From: Nitrososphaeria archaeon
GTDB taxonomy: Archaea > Thermoproteota > Nitrososphaeria > JACIWG01
Direction: 5' to 3'
NCBI GenBank assembly: GCA_963752255.1
Contig: CAVVXT010000019.1
Coordinates: 128,001-192,000, forward strand
DNA length: 64,000 nt
Part shown: piece after piece, positions 29,617 to 39,874 of the stretch
Position numbering within the stretch: the first letter of the stretch is position 1
Layout: each line of letters starts with the position of its first letter
The notes under the pieces: generated by a model
What the model saw: only the letters and a program-made list of their open reading frames with translations
The model's database searches: none
What the model was told of the DNA's origin: nothing
Program-made: the position numbers and the translations under genes

Positions 29617-30543
29617 GTGATTCGGATGAAAAGAATTTCATTTAAACAGGTGGGATTAAAGTACACTCTTAACCCATATGACGAGCCTATAATTAGGATA
29701 AAACCTAAAGAAACTATTGTTGTCGAAGTCGAAGATGCGCCTTCTGGTCAGATAAGAAAAGAAGGCGATGTTAGGGACCGTGATAAAATTCCATTTGGAA
29801 ACCCCGTTGTGGGCCCAATTTATATTGAAGGAGCAGAAGAGGAGGATACAATATCTGTGAATATAAAAGACATTAAGCCAACTATAGGTCAAGGCTCAAC
29901 CTATCTTTCTGAATTTAATCAGAGGTATCTGACTGATGTGCCAATCTTAAGATTTTTGAATAGCAGCCTTCCAAAGAGAACAAAGATATGTAAGATAAGG
30001 GGTGGGGCAGTACAGTTTGATGACTTGACCCTTCCCTACAGGCCTATGGTAGGAACCATAGGAGTTGCACCACATCCTCAAGCTGAATCAATTTCATCAA
30101 GCGTCATGCCTGGGCCGCATGGTGGAAACATGGATATTTCGGACATCTGCCCGGGAAGTACAGTTTTTCTACCTGTCTTCAATGAAGGTGGTTTCCTCTA
30201 TATAGGAGATGCTCACGCCGTACAGGGGGACGGAGAAATATCCGGAACAGCCGTCGAAATGCCTGCCGAATTGACAATCAAAGTTGATGTAACAAAGGAA
30301 AGCATCAACTGGCCTAGGATTGAGACAGATCGTGAAATTATGGTAGCAACTTCAACGAGCGCTGCAAGGAGTTTTGAAGATGCAATCAGAACCGCTTTCT
30401 TGGAGCTTACAATGTGGATGGAAGAGAAATGTGGCACAAATCGATTGGACTGCCTAATGCTGTGTTCGCAGGTTGGAAGAATCAGGGTAGGCAACCTTTG
30501 GACAGTAGCGGCGGCAATAGAAAAGAAGTACTTGAGGAAGTAG
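29617..30543 (+). CDS. Acetamidase/formamidase family protein
   Basis: NPVVGPIYIEGA, PGPHGGNMD, GDAHAVQGDGE. Confidence 0.92.
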   Translation: MIRMKRISFKQVGLKYTLNPYDEPIIRIKPKETIVVEVEDAPSGQIRKEGDVRDRDKIPFGNPVVGPIYIEGAEEEDTISVNIKDIKPTIGQGSTYLSEFNQRYLTDVPILRFLNSSLPKRTKICKIRGGAVQFDDLTLPYRPMVGTIGVAPHPQAESISSSVMPGPHGGNMDISDICPGSTVFLPVFNEGGFLYIGDAHAVQGDGEISGTAVEMPAELTIKVDVTKESINWPRIETDREIMVATSTSAARSFEDAIRTAFLELTMWMEEKCGTNRLDCLMLCSQVGRIRVGNLWTVAAAIEKKYLRK

Positions 30544-30589: not shown

Positions 30590-31279
30590 ATGTTAAAGCT
30601 GAAAGGGCTCGGCGTTTCAACTGGTGTAACAACAGGGCCTGTACTAGTCTTTAACGTACTTAAAGAAAATAAGCTGCTTGAAATTCAAGAGGAAAATCTA
30701 AGCGAACTTAAACGTTTTGAAAAAACACTCCAGAGAACCAGAGAGGACATCGAAGCTGCTTACAACAAGCTTGTGAAGGAGGGGATACGTGAAGGTGAAA
30801 TATTAAGTGCACACCTTCAGATACTTGATGATGAAGAGTTCTCAGGTGCGATAAAGACACTGATATCCAACAAGAAAATGAAAGTTGAGGATGCGGTTGA
30901 AGAAACTGTAAAGAAGCTATCAGCCACACTTAGAGAAGCAAAGTCGGAATATATTAGATCAAGGATAATAGATATAAACGATCTTGGAGAACAACTGATT
31001 AGAAATATGACATCTAAGAAGGGGGCAGCTATTTCCTCAGTAAAGCCGTCAATAATTGTAGCAAAAGAACTTGGCGCTACAGATGTAGCGACAATGGATA
31101 AGGGGAAAATACTTGGTATAGTTACTGAAGAGGGATCTCCGATTTCCCATGTTTCGATATTAGCTAGAGCACTTAAAATCCCAGCTGTTGTTAAATGCCA
31201 AAACATAGTAGATCAAGTTGAAAGCAGGGACACAATTTTTATAAACGGCTCTACAGGAGAAGTCATAATCAATCCTTAG
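30590..31279 (+). CDS. Stand-alone N-terminal half of PTS Enzyme I (HPr-binding helical domain + His phosphocarrier); no PEP-binding domain
   Basis: LKGLGVSTG, ILSAHLQILDD, YIRSRIIDINDL, GSPISHVSILARALKIPAVV; ends INGSTGEVIINP-stop. Confidence 0.88.
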   Translation: MLKLKGLGVSTGVTTGPVLVFNVLKENKLLEIQEENLSELKRFEKTLQRTREDIEAAYNKLVKEGIREGEILSAHLQILDDEEFSGAIKTLISNKKMKVEDAVEETVKKLSATLREAKSEYIRSRIIDINDLGEQLIRNMTSKKGAAISSVKPSIIVAKELGATDVATMDKGKILGIVTEEGSPISHVSILARALKIPAVVKCQNIVDQVESRDTIFINGSTGEVIINP

Positions 31280-31360
31280 GAAATAACCATGTGGATCCAT
31301 CACCAGTAAACAATAAGGTAATTGAAAAGATTTTTTATACGTTCAATAACAAATATCCTG

Positions 31361-31768
31361 ATGTCAGAAAATTTGGGCGCAGCATCGTTCAAGCAGCTTG
31401 AGAAGGAATTCGATGAACTAGACAAGGAAATGAAAGCTGCGATAAGCGATTGGCAGGGTTCATATGTTAACGACACTTGGGTTCCTAATATCCATAGAGA
31501 TTCTGAAAAAGACTTCATCATTCTAGAGAGACTGTTTAAATTATATGATAGACTAGCAGTTTTGTTTGACAAAAACAGAATTGTCCAAGAAAACCATAAA
31601 GAGTTGGAAAGGATTGTGCATGAAAATATGCTAAAATTGGAGACAGCTGTCGAACAGATGGAAAATGGAGACTTCACATTTGTTGACGCCCCCGATAAGG
31701 AATCTTTCCATACATCATGGATGAGTTTGCATCAAAGCTTGATGGCGTTCTTAAAAAAACGTCTCTAG
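31361..31768 (+). CDS. Helical His-containing protein resembling the C-terminal domain of actinobacterial Rv1126c
   Basis: SDWQ...PNIHRD...LERL...GDF..VDAP..ESFHTSWMSLH matches my recollection of the Rv1126c pattern (TDWQ...PNTHDD...DSYHTVWFELH); ATG at 31361 preferred. Confidence 0.7.
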   Translation: MSENLGAASFKQLEKEFDELDKEMKAAISDWQGSYVNDTWVPNIHRDSEKDFIILERLFKLYDRLAVLFDKNRIVQENHKELERIVHENMLKLETAVEQMENGDFTFVDAPDKESFHTSWMSLHQSLMAFLKKRL

Positions 31769-31773
31769 ATGAA

Positions 31774-32172
31774 TTAGACTTTACGCAGGTTTTTTGAATC
31801 TTCTGCAGCATTTTTGGCATCATTAAGACTACCGCCCGAACTTATCTCAACAGCTGCGGCGAATGATCCTTCAACTAGCGGAGCATCCGCGATGGTGACC
31901 TTCTCTCCAATTTCTTTAGGGAGCATCTTTATAGCTGCTTTGGAACTTATTATTGCACTTCCTAAATCGCAGACTATCAACACACCCCCTCTGTCCATCA
32001 CGTGTAAAATCGCTCTTTTTATAGCCAAAGGGTCTGTTCCAATAACTTTAGGGTCTATTGTTAAACCTCCAACAGACTCGACTATAACATTTCCTTTAAC
32101 AGCCTGGTTCAATAGCTCTTTAACACCTTCAGCAAGCCTTTTACTATGAGAAACAATGACTATGCCTACCAT
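31774..32172 (-). CDS. dhaM: PTS-dependent dihydroxyacetone kinase phosphotransfer subunit (EIIA-Man-like)
   Basis: VGIVIVSHS (phospho-His), IGTD, DLGSAI, DAPLVEG. Confidence 0.92.
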   Translation of the reverse strand: MVGIVIVSHSKRLAEGVKELLNQAVKGNVIVESVGGLTIDPKVIGTDPLAIKRAILHVMDRGGVLIVCDLGSAIISSKAAIKMLPKEIGEKVTIADAPLVEGSFAAAVEISSGGSLNDAKNAAEDSKNLRKV

Positions 32173-32175
32173 GAA

Positions 32176-32832
32176 TTATTCACCCTTCTCCCTTACGAAA
32201 TCGTACATCACCTTAATTATCAGATAGGCACTTGTTGCTCCGGGATCTTGATGGCCAGCAGCTCTTTCACCCAGATAACTCGCTCTACCCTTCTTTGCTA
32301 TCAATGGAATCGTAGACTTCAATCCCCGATCAGCTGCCATTAGAACTCTTTCGAGAACATTTACTAGACCGGCACAACTTATATCACGTGACTTGTTCAA
32401 CTCCTGCACCGCAGGGTAGAGGGTATCTACCATAGTCTTGTCCCCTGGCATAGTGCCGCCTCCTATATCTTGGACAGCTTTCAGACCTTCTACGAAAATT
32501 GCTGCAAGATCTGCATTATTTGCCTCTTTTTTATCTGATGCTGCTGATGCCATACCTGTAAACATCATGCCATACAATGGTCCTGCAGCACCACCCACCG
32601 TTTCCATTAAAACGGTACCTGTTGTCATAAGAACATCTCCAATATCTGAATTCGGATCTGCCTTCTTAAGCTGTTCAACTACACTCTTAAACCCTCTATT
32701 CATGTTAATACCGTGATCCGCGTCTCCGATAGCTGCATCCAAGTCTGTTAAATACTCCTCATTTTCGTTCATAACAAGGCTGACCCTACATATTATTTCA
32801 ATAAAATCTGACGTTTTAAGAGTTCTCGTCAA
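32176..32832 (-). CDS. dhaL: Dihydroxyacetone kinase ADP-binding subunit
   Basis: LDAAIGDADHG, GGAAGPLYG, GDKTMVD, KGRASYLGER..GHQDPGATS; TTG at 32832 preferred. Confidence 0.94.
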   Translation of the reverse strand: MTRTLKTSDFIEIICRVSLVMNENEEYLTDLDAAIGDADHGINMNRGFKSVVEQLKKADPNSDIGDVLMTTGTVLMETVGGAAGPLYGMMFTGMASAASDKKEANNADLAAIFVEGLKAVQDIGGGTMPGDKTMVDTLYPAVQELNKSRDISCAGLVNVLERVLMAADRGLKSTIPLIAKKGRASYLGERAAGHQDPGATSAYLIIKVMYDFVREKGE

Positions 32833-32863
32833 ATCCACAGCACTTTTCAGAATGTGTCCTATT

Positions 32864-33871
32864 CTAGCAGATGACTGGACCCGGCGTGTTGATTGCAACC
32901 GTTGCTGCGCGATCTCCAAGAAGGCTCTTCAATTCCTCGTCCAGTTTAAGCACTCCCACCCTTGCTCCCTGCATTTCAAGAGAGGACATGAATTCACCTA
33001 TCCAGCTAGCGTAAACAATCAATCCTAAGGAGTCAACATATTTCCTTACATCCCTGTAAAAGAGTAGTTTTTCCATATAAGGAGTGCCACCTGTTCCTTG
33101 AACCATCAAAGCTATCTTATCACCTCTAACTGTGCTCAGGTCTTCAACTACCTTGTCAACCATCATTTTTGCGAGCTCTTCAGAAGGAACCCATTTTGCT
33201 TTCTCTACACCCTTCTCACCATGTATTCCTATTCCGATTTCTATCTCATCTTCACCAAGTTCAAAGGTGTGCCTGCCTACAGCGGGAACACTACATGGGG
33301 TCAGAGCAACACCAAATTCGCGACCATTTTCTATTACTTTCTGTGATACCCGTTTCACATCTTCTAGATTTCCACCCTTCTCAGCTAAAGCGCCAGCTAT
33401 CTTGTGTACAAAAACGGTTACACCAGTGCCTCTCCTTTTCGATTTGTCTCGGATTGCAACATCATCGTTAACTATAACCCAGTCAACCATAATGCCTTGA
33501 GCCCTTGCCGACTTTGCTGCTGACTGGAAGTTCATAACGTCCCCCGAATAATTCTTTATGACTATCAGGATGCCGGCTTTAGTAGATACCTCCTTTATTC
33601 CAAAAATAATTTGTGGAATCGTCGGAGAAGTGAAGGTAGCGCCAGAACAGGCACAGTCAAGCATGCCGAATCCCACATAACCCGCGTGAGCTGGTTCATG
33701 TCCGCTGCCGCCTCCTGAAAGAAGAGCGACCTTATTGTCCGCTTTCTTATAGACCCTGTAGACGTTGTTCCATTTGGAATCTAATTTCACTACGTCAGGA
33801 AAGGCTAGCGCCAACCCCTCTAGCATTTCCCGGACTTCCTCCCCTGGTCTATTAATGAGCTTCTTTATCAC
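32864..33871 (-). CDS. dhaK: Dihydroxyacetone kinase substrate-binding subunit
   Basis: SGGGSGHEPAHAGYVG, KNYSGDVMNF, GIGIHGEKG. Confidence 0.95.
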   Translation of the reverse strand: MIKKLINRPGEEVREMLEGLALAFPDVVKLDSKWNNVYRVYKKADNKVALLSGGGSGHEPAHAGYVGFGMLDCACSGATFTSPTIPQIIFGIKEVSTKAGILIVIKNYSGDVMNFQSAAKSARAQGIMVDWVIVNDDVAIRDKSKRRGTGVTVFVHKIAGALAEKGGNLEDVKRVSQKVIENGREFGVALTPCSVPAVGRHTFELGEDEIEIGIGIHGEKGVEKAKWVPSEELAKMMVDKVVEDLSTVRGDKIALMVQGTGGTPYMEKLLFYRDVRKYVDSLGLIVYASWIGEFMSSLEMQGARVGVLKLDEELKSLLGDRAATVAINTPGPVIC

Positions 33872-33969
33872 ATGTACAAGGTTTCATCATCTGACATATA
33901 TCCATTGTTTATGCGAAATTCTATCTAAATGGAAAGAATTCGATCTGTAACCTTCTAAAAAGGACCGTG

Positions 33970-35550
33970 TTATTGGAAGGATAAGAGCTTTTTAACTTCA
34001 ACCGTTGGCTCAGGCTGCACAATCGGCACTTCTCCTAGATAGACATTACCTGTACTTCCATCGACGGTGATCAGGTCGCCTTCCTTAACCTTGATTCCGT
34101 TGACTTCGAAGAAGCCTCTTTCCATATCGATTCTTATTTTATCACATCCTACGACACATGGCTTTCCAAACCCTCTTGCTATAACGGCTGCGTGACTTGT
34201 TAGCCCACCGACGACGGTCAGGAGCCCTTCAGAAGCAGCTACACCGGCTATGTCGTCCGGCCTTGTTTCCTGTCTCACTAGAACAACCTTAATGTCGGCT
34301 TCTTTCATTCTTATGGCATCGTTTAAGCCAAAGACTACTTTGCCGGATGCGACGCTAGGCGAAGCCGGAAGACCTTTGACCAAAGGCGTACCTTTAAAGC
34401 GTTGATCGATTTTCTTATAGAAAAGCTGCCTAACCTGTGAAATATCTATTCTTTCCAGCGCTTCCTTTTTAGTGATCAACCCCTCTTCAACCATATCTAC
34501 TAGAATCTTTATTGCAGCCATACTTGTTCTTTTACCTGTTCTACTTTGTAAGACAAAGAGCTTATCACTTTCAACAGTAAATTCTATTTCTTGCATATCT
34601 TTGAAGAATTTTTCTATCTTATAGGCGACTTGTATAATGTGCTCATACAACTTGGGCTTAGAATGCCTAAGTTCGTTTATTGGTTTCGGAGTTCTTAGCC
34701 CCGACACTATTTCTTCGCCTTGAGCTTCCGAAAGATATTCACCGTATATTTCTTTCAGCCCTGTTGACGGATTCCTTGAGAAAGCGACGCCTGTCAATGA
34801 TGACTCGTCAAAGTTTCCGTACACCATACTCATTACGATAACAGCTGTTCCTAAATCATCGTTAATCTTGTACATTCTTCTGTATGTTGAAGCACGCGGG
34901 TTCCACCATGAATCAAAAACTGCAGATATGGCTTGATAAAGCTGTTCATATGGATCTTCAGGCAGCTTTTTTCCGGTTACCTTTTCTACGAGCAATTTGT
35001 AAGATTCAGCGACATTGCTATAAAAACTTGGAGAAGAAACAGATATGTTCTTGACACCAAATGTTTCTTTAATGTCATTAAATGTGTGTGTGAAGTTCTC
35101 GTCTGGAACCTTCAAAACAGTTTTGCCGAAGCTTCTTATAAACGAGCCATAAATTTCATACGCAAACCTCTCATTTGAAGAATATTCTGCAAGCGCTTTA
35201 ACCACCATCTCGTTAACCCCTAAATTTAGAACGGTGTCCATCATTCCCGGCATAGAAAATGGAGCACCAGATCTCGCGGACACAAGTAACGGATTCTTGG
35301 AGCCTCCAAAACTTCGTCCACACTTCAGCTCTAGTTCCTTCATCTTCAAGAAAATCTTTTCCTTTAGCTCTATTGTAAGCTTCCTTTCATTAGCACAATA
35401 TCTTTTAAATGATTCCGTTGATACAATAAAACCGAGTGGAACAGGTAACCCCAACTTTGAAATTTCAACTAACATAAAACCCTTTCCCCCGATTTCAAAC
35501 TCCGTTAGGCCGTGAGCAGCTGCTTCGTCAAAAGAATAAACTAAGACCAT
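33970..35550 (-). CDS. C-terminally truncated pyruvate phosphate dikinase homolog (ATP-grasp + His swivel domains; no pyruvate/PEP barrel)
   Basis: GGKG, PLLVSARSGAPFSMPGMMDTVLNLG, AQGEEIVSG, LQSRTGKR, GGLTSHAAVIARG; ends at the linker helix; ATG at 35550 preferred. Confidence 0.9.
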   Translation of the reverse strand: MVLVYSFDEAAAHGLTEFEIGGKGFMLVEISKLGLPVPLGFIVSTESFKRYCANERKLTIELKEKIFLKMKELELKCGRSFGGSKNPLLVSARSGAPFSMPGMMDTVLNLGVNEMVVKALAEYSSNERFAYEIYGSFIRSFGKTVLKVPDENFTHTFNDIKETFGVKNISVSSPSFYSNVAESYKLLVEKVTGKKLPEDPYEQLYQAISAVFDSWWNPRASTYRRMYKINDDLGTAVIVMSMVYGNFDESSLTGVAFSRNPSTGLKEIYGEYLSEAQGEEIVSGLRTPKPINELRHSKPKLYEHIIQVAYKIEKFFKDMQEIEFTVESDKLFVLQSRTGKRTSMAAIKILVDMVEEGLITKKEALERIDISQVRQLFYKKIDQRFKGTPLVKGLPASPSVASGKVVFGLNDAIRMKEADIKVVLVRQETRPDDIAGVAASEGLLTVVGGLTSHAAVIARGFGKPCVVGCDKIRIDMERGFFEVNGIKVKEGDLITVDGSTGNVYLGEVPIVQPEPTVEVKKLLSFQ

Positions 35551-35629
35551 GAATACATACAAATAGTCTGAAATATTAAATCTTATTGGAAAAACATTTA
35601 ATAGACAAAGCTGCTTTTCCAAAACTTAT

Positions 35630-35896
35630 ATGATCAAAGGTGAAGTAACACTGTTGAACAGGACTGGGTTGCATGCCCGACCCGCTGCAAAGTTAGTTCA
35701 AATGACAAAGAAGTTCAGATCCAAAATAAGCATAATTAAGGGAGATCAAGAGGCTGACGCTAAGAGTGTAATCAGAATCCTCTCCCTTGGCGCAGAGCAA
35801 TGGGATAAGATCGTTATCAAAGCAGACGGAGAAGATGAAAAAGAAGCTTTTGAAGCGTTAATGACACTTATCAGCAATAAATTTTGGGAGGAGTAA
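35630..35896 (+). CDS. ptsH: HPr phosphocarrier protein
   Basis: GLHARPAA (His15), DAKS (Ser46), ADGEDE. Confidence 0.95.
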   Translation: MIKGEVTLLNRTGLHARPAAKLVQMTKKFRSKISIIKGDQEADAKSVIRILSLGAEQWDKIVIKADGEDEKEAFEALMTLISNKFWEE

Positions 35897-36071: not shown

Positions 36072-36713
36072 ATGATACGATTGATGCACAAAGACGACCC
36101 CAGACCCTACATAGAAGAAAAGGGATTACATATAAAGCTGTACAAAAACCTTGTTAAAAAGAGACCTAAACTATGGAATGCACTACAAAAGAATCTGGGG
36201 GAACTGCTAGAGTATTATCAGGAAGACCCAGACAAGCTTATTTTACTTTACGAAAAAACCATATCAGACGACTTTCTAGACAGCCGCGAAAGCCCAGAAA
36301 AGTTTTGGATTTTTCTTGTTCTAAAATTTTCTATAAGTTACCTTAATGAGACAAAAAATGTCTTTAACTTCCATTATGATTCCGTCAAGAAATTTTATGA
36401 TAACGAAATTCCGGCTCTAATGAAAACTGACATCGAAATTGCTCAACTTTTAGATAATGAGCCGTACAGAAACCTTTTTCTTAACAGACTTTACTCTACG
36501 AGAAGGGATTTATATCTAAAACTGGATAGGCTCTTGAAAACATATGATAATTTCAAGGAAGTGTCTAAGAAAGATGAAGAATTAGAAGGTAAACTGAATA
36601 AGAAACTTTCAATTTTTAGATTTATCCACCCACTTAGATTTAACAGATTTATAAAAGAAATTGAAAATAACCAGCCAAGTTTAGAAAAATACATTCCTCT
36701 AGTTTATTCTTAA
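36072..36713 (+). CDS. Hypothetical protein
   Basis: 213-codon AT-rich ORF; no motif recognised. Confidence 0.6.
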   Translation: MIRLMHKDDPRPYIEEKGLHIKLYKNLVKKRPKLWNALQKNLGELLEYYQEDPDKLILLYEKTISDDFLDSRESPEKFWIFLVLKFSISYLNETKNVFNFHYDSVKKFYDNEIPALMKTDIEIAQLLDNEPYRNLFLNRLYSTRRDLYLKLDRLLKTYDNFKEVSKKDEELEGKLNKKLSIFRFIHPLRFNRFIKEIENNQPSLEKYIPLVYS

Positions 36714-37185: not shown

Positions 37186-39874
37186 ATGGAGAATTTCAGT
37201 AAACCACAGTGGCACACTCTTGAACCTGATGCCGTATTGCAGAATATTGGTAGCAATAGAGATGGTCTTAGCGAACAAGAAGTTAAAGGGAGAAGGGAAA
37301 AGTATGGAATAAACGAAATAAGAAGAGAGAAGAAGATTTCTCCATTGAAGCTCTTTATCGAACAATTCGAGAATATTCTGATCATCCTATTATTGGCAGC
37401 TACAGCATTTTCTCTTTTGGTCGGAGAAGTGCTGGATGCTGTAGTAATTTTCGCTATAGTTATAGCCTCAGCTGGCCTAGGATTCATAGAAGAATTTCGT
37501 TCTGAGAATGCAGTACAGCTTTTGAAACAACTTGCAGCGCCCACTGTTACACTGATAAGAGAAGGAAAAGAGCAAGTAGTCCCTTCCTCAGATATCGTTC
37601 CTGGAGACATAGTTGTACTGCGAGTGGGAGATAAGGTTCCTGCTGACATTAGGTTAATTGAAGTTTTCAATTTAAAGATAGATGAAGCACCTTTAACTGG
37701 AGAGTCTCTTCCGGTAGAAAAGAACGTAACGGTCCTACCAGAAAATACAGTTATCCCGGATATGACAAACATGTCTTTTAGTGGTACTGTTGTAACCTAT
37801 GGCAGAGGCTTAGGTGTTGTAGTTTCTACTGGGAATGAAAACAGAATTTGGAAAAATCGCTAAAACTGTGCAAGAAGAGCAAAAAACCGAGACTCCACTG
37901 GAGCGAAGAATGAATACAATCAGTAAGACGTTGATTTCTTTTATGTTGTGTGTTTGTGCTCTTGTTGCTTTCTTTGGAATAATAAGAGGCTATGCTATTT
38001 TAGATATGATTCTTTGGGGAATCAGTTTAGCTGTGGCAGCCGTACCTGAAGCGTTGCCCGCTGTTGTTACTGGTTCATTAGCGGTAGGTATGTACGAAAT
38101 GGCTAGGAGAAAAGCGATAATAAGAAGACTTCCTGCAGTTGAAACTTTGGGAGGAACCTCTATAATATGCTCAGATAAAACAGGTACAATGACAAAGGGT
38201 GAAATGACGGTCAGAAGGATGTATGTTGAAGATAAAGTTATTGAGGTTAGTGGCGCAGGTTACGAGCCCAAAGGAGCTTTTTATATCGATGGCCAGGAAA
38301 TCGATTCTAAAAAATCTGAGGGACTACTAAGACTTCTAAAAGCATCGGCATTATGCAATGACGCAAAACTCGCCAATGAAAAAGGCAAGTGGATGGTTAT
38401 TGGGGATACTACGGAAGGCGCACTACTAGTTGTTGCAGCCAAAGCTGGAATTTATGTGGAAAAGTTGAATCAAGGAAGAGTAAACGAGATACCTTTCACT
38501 TCGGAACGAAAGAGAATGACTACCATCCATGTTGTCCCAGAGTTCGATAAGAAACTTGTTTTGATGAAAGGGGCCCCTGAAGTTGTCCTTGAGAAATGTA
38601 GCCGTGTCTTTATGAACGGAAAATCCACTTTGCTGTCACAAGAGAAAAAGAAAGGAATTTTAGAAGTAAATGAGAAGATGGCTTCTGATGCACTACGAAA
38701 TCTTGCATTAGCATACAGAGAGGAGATAGACGTTCCTGATGATCTCGACGAAGAATTTGAGAGAAATTTCATATTCTTGGGTCTTGTCGGAATGATAGAC
38801 CCTCCACGCCCAGAAGTAAAAGAAGCACTCAAGCTTTGCGATAACGCTGGAATAAAGGTCGTGATGATAACAGGAGATCACAAGTTAACTGCAGTTGCAG
38901 TCGCTAAAGAACTGGGCATAGTCAAAGATGACAACAGTTTGATCCTAACAGGTGCTGAACTTGAGAGAATGCCAGAGGAAGATTTTGACAAGATTGTAGA
39001 AAATGTAAAGGTATACGCAAGAGTCTCTCCCGAACACAAAATGAGAATAGTCAAAGCTCTAAAGGAAAAAGGACACATCGTAGCCATGACAGGTGACGGG
39101 ATAAACGACGCGGCAGCTCTCAAGATGGCGGACATTGGTATTTCAATGGGAATTACTGGAACTGAAGTAACTAAAGAAACATCTGATATGATTCTAGCAG
39201 ACGACAACTTTGCAACTATCGTCAATGCCGTAAAAGAGGGAAGAAGAATATTCGACAACATCAAAAAGTATCTTGTATATCTCTTGCAATGCAACCTAGC
39301 AGAAATCGCTACAATGCTAGTCGCAACCCTCGCAGGCCTTCCAATACCTCTGACAGCGATACAATTACTCTGGGTGAATCTAACCACAGATGGCCTACCT
39401 GCTTTAGCATTAGGAATCGATCCAGCAGAATCCGATTTAATGGAAAGGAAGCCAAGGCCACTAAAAGAAAGTATAACAACTAAAAGGGAAAATTGGATAT
39501 ACTTCGTTATAGTTCCTGCAGTCCTAACATCGATACTCCTCATTAACTTTACTTGGTCGTTGGCCAACGAATCCATGGTGGAAGCTAGGACGCAGACATT
39601 CACAGTCATGATAGCATGCGAACTTGTAATAGCTCTATCTTGTCATTCAGCAAAGCATTTATTCTACAAATCTAAGCCATTTTCCAACAAATTCCTATGG
39701 ATTGCTGTAATAAGCTCTTTCCTAATGCAATTCTTTGTCCTTTATGTTCCCTTCATGCATGTACCTTTTGACATTACCTTCCCAAGCCTTCAGGATTGGA
39801 CACTTGCCGCAGTCTCAGCTACCATAATATTCTCTACTGTAGAAACACTAAAGTTCCAAATAAGGAAGAAATAG
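37186..39874 (+). pseudogene. Cation-transporting P-type ATPase (type IIA, Ca2+-like), split by a +1 G near 37832 (possible sequencing error)
   Basis: LTGES, PEALP, DKTGT, KGAPE, GDGIND; removing one G from actGggaatg restores STGMKTEFG. Confidence 0.92.

Follow-up and report, generated by a model that had tools for sequence, protein, structure and literature searches.

A candidate ATP-charged phosphotransferase relay with a truncated dikinase and half an Enzyme I in a Nitrososphaeria archaeon

How is a phosphotransferase system (PTS) charged when its genome offers no evident point of entry for phosphoenolpyruvate (PEP)? The question is raised by a locus of 5.3 kb in a Nitrososphaeria archaeon (assembly GCA_963752255.1; genome G000, with 2,107,113 bases in 19 contigs), which lies within a stretch of 64,000 nucleotides, G000:C19:128001-192000, here called the window. 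By definition, PEP is the phosphoryl donor of a PTS, and it is the PEP-utilizers_C barrel of Enzyme I (EI) that loads the Enzyme I histidine from PEP and dimerises the protein. The locus encodes the N-terminal half of an Enzyme I (EI-N), a truncated pyruvate phosphate dikinase (PPDK-N), the phosphocarrier HPr, the subunits DhaM, DhaL and DhaK, and a small protein predicted to form a four-helix bundle (the bundle protein), all inside these 5.3 kb. The best reading of the arrangement, unproven and in our judgement somewhat short of an even chance, is that the dikinase half, using ATP, charges the relay in place of an Enzyme I barrel using PEP. This reading is favoured because the parts of the relay are intact and conserved and yet are without a PEP entry.

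Gene content of the locus and the search for a PEP entry point

The features of the locus, in positions of the window, are the following:

30590-31279, plus strand: EI-N, Enzyme I N-terminal half (229 amino acids; PF05524 and PF00391)
31361-31768, plus strand: bundle protein ('orf148'; about 135 amino acids from the ATG; no Pfam family over the cut-off)
31774-32172, minus strand: DhaM, EIIA-mannose-type phosphoryl donor subunit (PF03610, E 1.4e-22; motif VSHS)
32176-32838, minus strand: DhaL, ADP-binding subunit (PF02734, E 5.6e-53; GTG start at 32838 approximate)
32864-33871, minus strand: DhaK, dihydroxyacetone-binding subunit (PF02733, E 1.2e-109)
33970-35550, minus strand: PPDK-N, truncated pyruvate phosphate dikinase (526 amino acids from the ATG; PF01326 and PF00391)
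35551-35629, no strand: divergent intergenic region between PPDK-N and HPr (79 nucleotides)
35630-35896, plus strand: HPr phosphocarrier (PF00381, E 9.2e-28; His15 motif GLHARP)

An earlier sequence-only reading had described a cluster of dhaK, dhaL, dhaM and HPr with EI-N and PPDK-N, and open reading frames (ORFs) and domain scans placed every one of these genes where it had put them; its list was incomplete, as the ORF of the bundle protein between EI-N and dhaM had been overlooked. EI-N consists of an HPr-binding helical domain (PF05524, residues 5-125, E 1e-22) followed by a swivel-His domain with the motif SPISH (PF00391, residues 152-223, E 1e-21). A Pfam scan found no PF02896, the family of the PEP-utilizers_C barrel, in the protein, which does end after its His domain, as first read. 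It aligns with residues 4-231 of the 575-residue E. coli EI; against the Enzyme I model TIGR01417 it covers positions 1-230 of 565 and scores 139.5, below the cut-off of 341.7, having the N-terminal half of that family and lacking its barrel and whole-protein score.

PPDK-N comprises an ATP-grasp domain and a swivel-His domain with the motif GGLTSH, and it ends in the linker ahead of the PEP/pyruvate barrel, where the same account had placed its end. It aligns to residues 5-512 of the 874-residue Clostridium PPDK in the PDB (E 1.8e-142), with GGLTSH falling on GGMTSH of the solved protein and its own end lying about 16 residues past the last residue so aligned. The alignments to E. coli EI and Clostridium PPDK thus show that both EI-N and PPDK-N end right after the swivel domain. 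Against the PPDK model TIGR01828, PPDK-N covers positions 3-522 of 865 and scores 643.7, below the cut-off of 843.45; the ATP-grasp domain and catalytic swivel His of the family are present, and the C-terminal barrel and full score are not. Against NF004531 (PRK05878), a model of a short 'pyruvate, phosphate dikinase', it scores 490.4 over positions 25-464 of 534, above the cut-off of 456.

HPr is a member of its family by TIGR01003 (93.3, above the cut-off of 47.9). DhaL and DhaM pass their equivalog cut-offs (217.2 against 138.3 for TIGR02365 and 119.8 against 98.25 for TIGR02364, respectively), and DhaK, which is 67% identical to the DhaK of the related genome G003, scores slightly below that of TIGR02363 (383.1 against 406.25); the two equivalog matches and the Dak1 domain found in DhaK assign the set to DhaKLM, the PTS-dependent kinase of dihydroxyacetone. 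The phospho-His motifs GGLTSH, SPISH, GLHARP and VSHS are all intact in the translations, as had been noticed, and the PPDK-N and HPr genes do diverge across a shared gap, within which both promoters presumably lie.

A six-frame search of the whole genome with PF02896 gave a single match, at C12:160291-161191, which is the C-terminal part of a PEP synthase (PpsA) gene reading in three frames. Neither an Enzyme I C-terminal domain, whether stand-alone or as a remnant downstream of the truncated genes, nor a full ptsI was found in this genome, which is 94.67% complete; the outcome agrees with the absence of remnants that the sequence-only reading had reported and answers the genome-wide search that it had proposed. 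The only PF05524 in the genome is that of EI-N, and PF00391 occurs in PpsA, PPDK-N and EI-N only. Whole-genome tblastn returned one HPr (and no second with the window HPr as query), one EI-N and one PPDK-type gene. With queries from the archaeal genomes G327 and G387 it found no homologs of EIIC, EIIB or EIIA, so that DhaKLM is the sole PTS consumer found. The only PEP synthase gene of the genome (L007 5235-7516; G000:C12, about 160235-162516) is made up of three consecutive ORFs of 329, 207 and 241 amino acids, which reflect either assembly indel errors or a pseudogene.

Conservation, partner and origin of the truncated proteins

Both truncations recur in close relatives. The closest relatives of PPDK-N measure 526, 532 and 538 amino acids at 92, 72 and 73% identity, and the nearest full-length proteins are at most 61% identical; the closest relatives of EI-N (P0273-P0280) measure 229-267 amino acids at 47-86% identity. 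Short-read contigs from Logan (runs X1, X2 and X5; two studies) run through the EI-N stop codon into the gene that follows and through that of PPDK-N in the direction of dhaK, with no joints at either. The possibility that full-length homologs or misassembly would undo the observation is therefore not borne out, since close homologs are equally short and the gene ends are bridged. The truncated EI-N and PPDK-N are a conserved state under selection, and not decay.

The ORF that had been overlooked runs from a TTG at 31322 to 31768 (148 amino acids). Its likely start is the ATG at 31361, because this agrees with the 136-residue relative P0125, which is 85% identical to the window protein; the winged helix described below is absent from both. 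Two homopolymer runs differ in the short-read contigs: the T6 run at 31330, upstream of the likely ATG, has one extra T (4 of 4 runs), and the A7 run at 31753 has one A fewer (3 of 4 runs), which alters the end of the protein and makes its last few residues uncertain. The bundle protein matches no Pfam or NCBIfam family above the cut-off. Its AlphaFold2 model is a four-helix bundle with a beta-hairpin (pLDDT 90.1; residues 1-14 below 50), for which Foldseek gave no PDB match at E<=1e-3, the best being generic helical bundles with TM 0.4-0.47.

A profile built from four copies retrieved 1338 representatives at E<=1e-3, of which 742 reach E<=1e-10. The typical member of this family has about 200 amino acids, with an N-terminal winged-helix-like part of about 60 residues ahead of the C-terminal helical domain. 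The winged helix is recognised from a TrmB match (E 8.5e-5) and from MarR/MntR-type PDB matches confined to profile positions 3-90; against PDB sequences the family profile gave only weak N-terminal winged-helix matches (best E 0.0014). In the helical domain, Q45, H130, W133 and H137 are invariant and W44, N56, H58, D60, D64 and E135 nearly so. The window protein carries Q45, N56, H58, D60, D64, H130, W133 and H137, including the N.H.D...D loop that marks the bundle domain, and its ORF starts at about profile position 56, 42 nucleotides after the EI-N stop, leaving no winged-helix part.

The distribution of these proteins was followed in a sample of 401 genomes of the phylum. PF05524 occurs in 16, as short frames of 233-280 amino acids in three (G000, G327, G387) and as frames of 562-619 in the other 13. 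PPDK-type matches (E<=1e-60) occur in 161 genomes, and among the matches listed (150 of the 161) frames of 551-555 amino acids are found in G000, G327 and G363; the search also gave six intermediate frames of 460-826 amino acids, several of them at contig ends. The bundle profile matches 21 genomes, of which only G000, G327, G363 (two copies) and G387 match strongly in the bundle part. The matches in the other 17 are weak (E 8e-8 to 9e-6), and 15 of them fall within the first 94 model positions. None of the 13 sampled genomes with a full-length EI has a strong bundle-part match, and all five archaeal genomes with a short EI-N (G000, G003, G327, G387, G437) have the bundle protein. Within the class of G327 (76 genomes), PF05524 is found in three (G327, G387, G437), all short, and the bundle family in five (G327, G363, G387, G437, G444); within the order of G000 (10 genomes), PF05524 is confined to G000 and G003.

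Homologs of the bundle protein found by tblastn adjoin relevant genes in other archaea, and the neighbourhood, whose conservation had been named as a check, does recur (G003, G327, G444). The arrangements are:

G003 (68% complete): dhaK-dhaL-dhaM grouped with HPr and EI-N, and a separate contig with the bundle protein and PPDK-N; no PF02896
G327 (89% complete): EIIC-GAT, EIIB, Rpe, HPr, EI-N, bundle protein, PPDK-N and EIIA on one 10-kb contig; no PF02896
G444: bundle protein, PPDK-N, EIIA and EIIB on a 3-kb contig
G387 and G437: EIIA-EIIB-EIIC, HPr, EI-N and bundle protein; PPDK_N only in PpsA of 817-818 amino acids
G363: PPDK-N with two bundle-family genes; its 12-kb contig carries no PTS gene and its genome no PF05524

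In G363 the truncated PPDK is flanked by the two bundle paralogs (G363:C34; L078 3755-4459 and 6879-7490), one upstream on the same strand and the other downstream on the opposite strand. Beside the dha cluster of G003 (L013 13166-16483; G003:C14) stand a radical SAM/SPASM protein, a small ORF and an ORF of 539 amino acids without a Pfam family.

The bundle family also accompanies truncated PPDKs in bacteria. A one-genome-per-species scan gave 541 relatives, and the counts that follow cover the best 80 of these 541 loci, all bacterial (Nocardia, Mycobacterium, Streptomyces and Alpha-, Beta- and Gammaproteobacteria). Of the 80, 65 contain a PPDK-N gene, which either immediately follows the bundle gene or precedes it, in places as a fusion; some of the other 15 loci lie at contig ends. 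A PPDK C-domain, HPr, DhaK, DhaL, DhaM or a true EI-N was found in none of the 80. Ten long or intermediate members of the family were scanned with Pfam. Four of them (716-799 amino acids) carry PPDK_N and PEP-utilizers with the bundle domain C-terminal, at the place of the barrel. Both PPDK_N and PEP-utilizers also occur in two shorter pieces; a further two have PEP-utilizers alone, one has Transketolase_N and one no Pfam family. In the member with Transketolase_N (P0186, 448 amino acids) that domain precedes the bundle domain; the fusion could be genuine or an artefact of gene calling.

A conserved proteobacterial gene order is seen in 23 of the 80 loci (L087, L090, L093, L098, L111, L127, L142, L147, L158 and others). 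It begins with a 250-residue swivel-His protein, a 520-residue protein without a Pfam family, an acyl-CoA ligase, the bundle protein and PPDK-N, and continues with BCCP, biotin carboxylase and carboxyltransferase, often followed by a thiolase or an acyl-CoA dehydrogenase. The cluster looks like a catabolic pathway of phosphorylation and carboxylation, and like the archaeal clusters it has two swivel-His proteins. The 520-residue family is itself fused to the bundle domain in P0138 and P0188 (726-728 amino acids), where the fused part shares 57% and 48% identity with the stand-alone form (L129 6695-8260); counting PPDK-N, the bundle domain is thus fused to two or more different partners. No homolog of the 520-residue family was found in the window or the archaeal loci, and the 539-residue ORF of G003, considered as a member, proved unrelated by comparison. 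Metagenome contigs searched with PPDK-N yielded 80 loci, all at 50% identity or less, with P0001-P0003 not among them. A C-domain match is present in 69; of the other 11, four (L164, L165, L182, L192) have full-length frames of 881-919 amino acids and seven lie on short contigs, and a bundle-family match was found in none of the 11.

The phylogeny of the dikinases bears on how the truncated forms arose. In a quick maximum-likelihood tree of 67 N-terminal parts, the window protein and P0001-P0003 (support 100) are sister to full-length archaeal PPDKs of 849-853 amino acids (support 99), and the short forms of G003, G327 and G363, with seven more, are sister to full-length PPDKs of the G327 family (support 99). 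An approximately unbiased (AU) test on 31 rows rejects a single clade of archaeal truncated forms (p 2.5e-36), for a group named after the tree had been seen. By this tree and test, archaeal PPDK was shortened at one and the same linker on two or more occasions. The two resulting lineages occur in PTS clusters and with the bundle protein, one with DhaKLM and the other with EIIC-GAT/EIIB/EIIA; since the window and G327/G003 lineages are separate truncations of full-length PPDKs, the PTS-linked truncation is convergent. The 23 bacterial bundle-linked PPDK-Ns of the tree stand on the far side of a branch with support 99 from the window lineage, and common descent of the window PPDK-N with that bacterial clade was not recovered. 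In the EI-N tree, the window protein, P0273-P0280 and G003 form one clade (support 99), and the G327 and G387 proteins fall close to full-length EIs from G370 and G430; the tree would also be compatible with one origin for the short EI-N form.

A complementary loss of the two PEP-binding domains had been put forward for the locus. Both proteins are indeed without a PEP domain, and conservedly so, but the loss scenario is too simple, because the truncated PPDKs are conserved lineages paired with the bundle protein, which is also encoded in the cluster.

Charging of the relay and competing explanations

If the relay is charged from ATP, the swivel His of PPDK-N would first be autophosphorylated, as has been seen in a bacterial analogue; in PPDK it is the beta-phosphate of ATP that the His receives. 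EI-N would next take over the phosphoryl group on its homologous swivel His, probably on or through the bundle protein, which would stand in for the PEP/pyruvate barrel as the docking partner of the swivel-His domains. From EI-N it would proceed to HPr, DhaM, DhaL-bound ADP and finally the DhaK-bound substrate, by steps that are established for these families. The bundle protein is tied to both halves by the PPDK-N fusions, by the 65 of 80 bacterial loci and by the five of five genomes with a short EI-N. It may act as a dock, a phospho-His relay or a regulator, and direct transfer from the PPDK His to the EI-N His is something that we infer.

Should this reading be correct, the same carriers would be headed by an ATP dikinase, which would change the definition of the PTS and with it the view of PTS activity as a reporter of the PEP/pyruvate ratio. 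Truncated PPDKs, which recent work showed to be histidine kinases, gain a concrete candidate acceptor, and attention is drawn to a conserved, uncharacterised family of partners, hundreds of which are found in Actinomycetota and Pseudomonadota. The whole system, with its six or seven soluble proteins, is small and amenable to in vitro work. A wider proposal is possible but tentative: the bundle family would be a general docking or phospho-relay partner of swivel-His domains and the barrel replacement in a widespread dikinase family, with the partner of the mycobacterial truncated PPDK (VadK) probably a member; in archaea it would wire an ATP-grasp dikinase to EI-N and HPr, giving the first ATP-driven PTS, evolved at least twice by truncation of resident PPDKs.

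Several observations weigh against charging by PPDK-N. For phosphoryl passage from one swivel-His domain to another we know of no precedent. In G387 and G437, which belong to one genus (88% and 80% complete), EI-N, HPr, EIICBA and the bundle protein are accompanied by no truncated PPDK, and as the sole PPDK_N match in both is a full PpsA, PPDK-N is not obligatory for a short-EI-N system. Conversely, G363 has the bundle protein and PPDK-N with no PTS gene on the contig and no PF05524. The lack of HPr, DhaKLM and true EI-N in all 80 bacterial loci means that the module of PPDK-N and bundle protein has a PTS-independent role. The window bundle protein, besides being without a winged helix, has Ser at the nearly invariant Glu135. 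The evidence comes from seven archaeal genomes, all MAG-like assemblies (that is, resembling metagenome-assembled genomes), among which related genomes are not independent. To these may be added the winged helix of typical bundle-family members, which fits a regulatory role, the automatic name 'Transcriptional regulator family protein' given to an Atlas cluster of the family, and the proposal, in the text of a study of the M. tuberculosis enzyme, that VadK is a regulatory kinase acting on enzymes and not the feeder of a relay (PMC13400623).

The last three points belong to the competing explanation that survives best, although we consider it unlikely: PPDK-N and the bundle protein would be a VadK-like pair of histidine kinase and regulator that senses ATP, AMP or Pi and controls the neighbouring PTS and Dha genes, at the level of either transcription or activity, with the relay charged by some other donor. 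The module stands without PTS genes in all 80 bacterial loci and in G363, and in G387 and G437 the bundle gene lies divergent beside the PTS operon, as is often the case with regulators. However, the window copy and P0125 cannot bind DNA through a winged helix, as they have none; the invariant polar residues of the bundle domain cluster, which is typical of a site and not of a scaffold; and the relay in G000, G003 and G327 would be left without a phosphoryl source. In addition, the PPDK-N gene immediately precedes EIIA, in the same orientation, in G327 and G444.

A second alternative, which we regard as improbable, is that the relay has another charger, for example the swivel His of a full-length PpsA encoded elsewhere or another small-molecule donor, and that PPDK-N is an unrelated neighbour. 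PpsA is present in G000 (on C12, in three frames) and in both G387 and G437, which are without PPDK-N. Such a donor is at odds with the complete absence of PF02896 from G327 and G003 and with the clustering of PPDK-N with PTS genes in three genomes and two independent truncation lineages.

The relay might, thirdly, still depend on PEP, with the bundle protein as a non-homologous replacement of the barrel that makes a split Enzyme I with EI-N and a split PPDK or PEP synthase with PPDK-N. The bundle protein is the one partner shared by all five short-EI-N genomes, among them the two that lack PPDK-N, it takes the C-terminal position of the barrel in natural fusions, and its conserved His, Asp and Glu could bind metal. 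Against this stands the size of the domain, about 130 amino acids, and its lack of a fold or sequence relative in the PDB (no Foldseek match at E<=1e-3, best TM 0.47); we rate this explanation as quite improbable.

The weakest explanation, that the truncations are frameshifts, misassembly or pseudogenes, has a negligible chance and is refuted for practical purposes: indel-type breaks are present elsewhere in the assembly (PpsA in three frames and a P-type ATPase split at a GGG run) and two homopolymer differences from the short-read contigs lie in the 31330-31753 stretch, but no C-domain remnant occurs in any frame, homologs of other samples have equal lengths, contigs of other studies cross both gene ends, and the truncated PPDK clades hold at least four and ten members. 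None of the indel-type problems of the assembly gives rise to either truncation.

The P-type ATPase lies at 37186-39874 as ORFs of 225 and 679 amino acids that overlap at 37835-37863; one base fewer in the GGG run near 37831 restores the usual ...TGMKTEFGKIA... reading, and the break looks like a homopolymer indel. Two other neighbours complete the surroundings of the relay genes. An acetamidase/formamidase-family gene (29617-30543) stands just upstream of EI-N and has three more matches in the genome (C10, C14 and C5) at 44-50% identity, that on C5 over only 73 residues. Downstream of HPr, an ORF of 213 amino acids (36072-36713) matches no Pfam family, and the related loci that were searched contain no homolog of it.

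Comparison with known systems

The literature holds no paper that we could find on a PTS charged by a truncated PPDK or on an archaeal system with EI-N only. Full-text searches likewise found no barrel-less PTS clustered with a truncated dikinase, no account of the bundle family as the conserved partner of a dikinase and no repeated convergent origin of the arrangement in archaea. The claim of the sequence-only reading that no described system has this wiring thus stands as far as the literature goes, but an EI-N-only module in a Dha system has a precedent in the E. coli-type DhaM, and every component family is already known.

That precedent is the nearest likeness. The PTS-dependent DhaKLM of E. 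coli shares with the window the same families of DhaK, DhaL and DhaM and a barrel-less EI-N module in the Dha relay. In E. coli DhaM, EIIA-Man, HPr-like and EI-N-like domains are joined in one protein, whereas in the window the three modules are separate proteins; against NF008478, the model of the E. coli-type DhaM (473 positions), the window DhaM covers positions 1-126, HPr 160-241 and EI-N 256-472. The E. coli Dha relay is charged from PEP by the general EI and HPr, whereas no full EI or EI C-terminal domain was found in the genome of the window. Canonical PtsI, including the archaeal full-length proteins, has the HPr-binding and swivel-His domains in common with the window EI-N, and short EI-N forms group with the archaeal full-length EIs of G370 and G430; the difference is the PEP-utilizers_C barrel, which the window EI-N lacks.

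On the side of the dikinase, truncated PPDKs have been published as histidine kinases in 2025-26, and the text on VadK (Rv1127c) of M. tuberculosis describes a truncated PPDK that autophosphorylates His422 with ATP and Mg (PMC13400623). VadK resembles the window PPDK-N in having only the ATP-grasp and swivel-His domains, with no pyruvate/PEP domain and the T-S-H motif kept, and in having a small partner gene adjacent. In the Mycobacterium loci L145 and L153 a bundle-family gene encoding about 200 amino acids lies directly downstream of the PPDK-N gene, and Rv1126c is probably a member of the family. The two differ in lineage, the window protein being nested in archaeal full-length PPDKs, and in context, which is the methylcitrate cycle for VadK and a PTS relay here; the terms 'phosphotransferase system' and 'archaea' are absent from the main text of PMC13400623 in a term search.

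PPDK, PEP synthase and rifampin phosphotransferase share the ATP-grasp and swivel-His chemistry of the window PPDK-N, and swapping of the third, acceptor-binding domain is known in this family (PMC4844700). In the window PPDK-N this third domain is absent and apparently replaced in trans by the bundle protein, and the proposed acceptor would be the swivel His of another protein.

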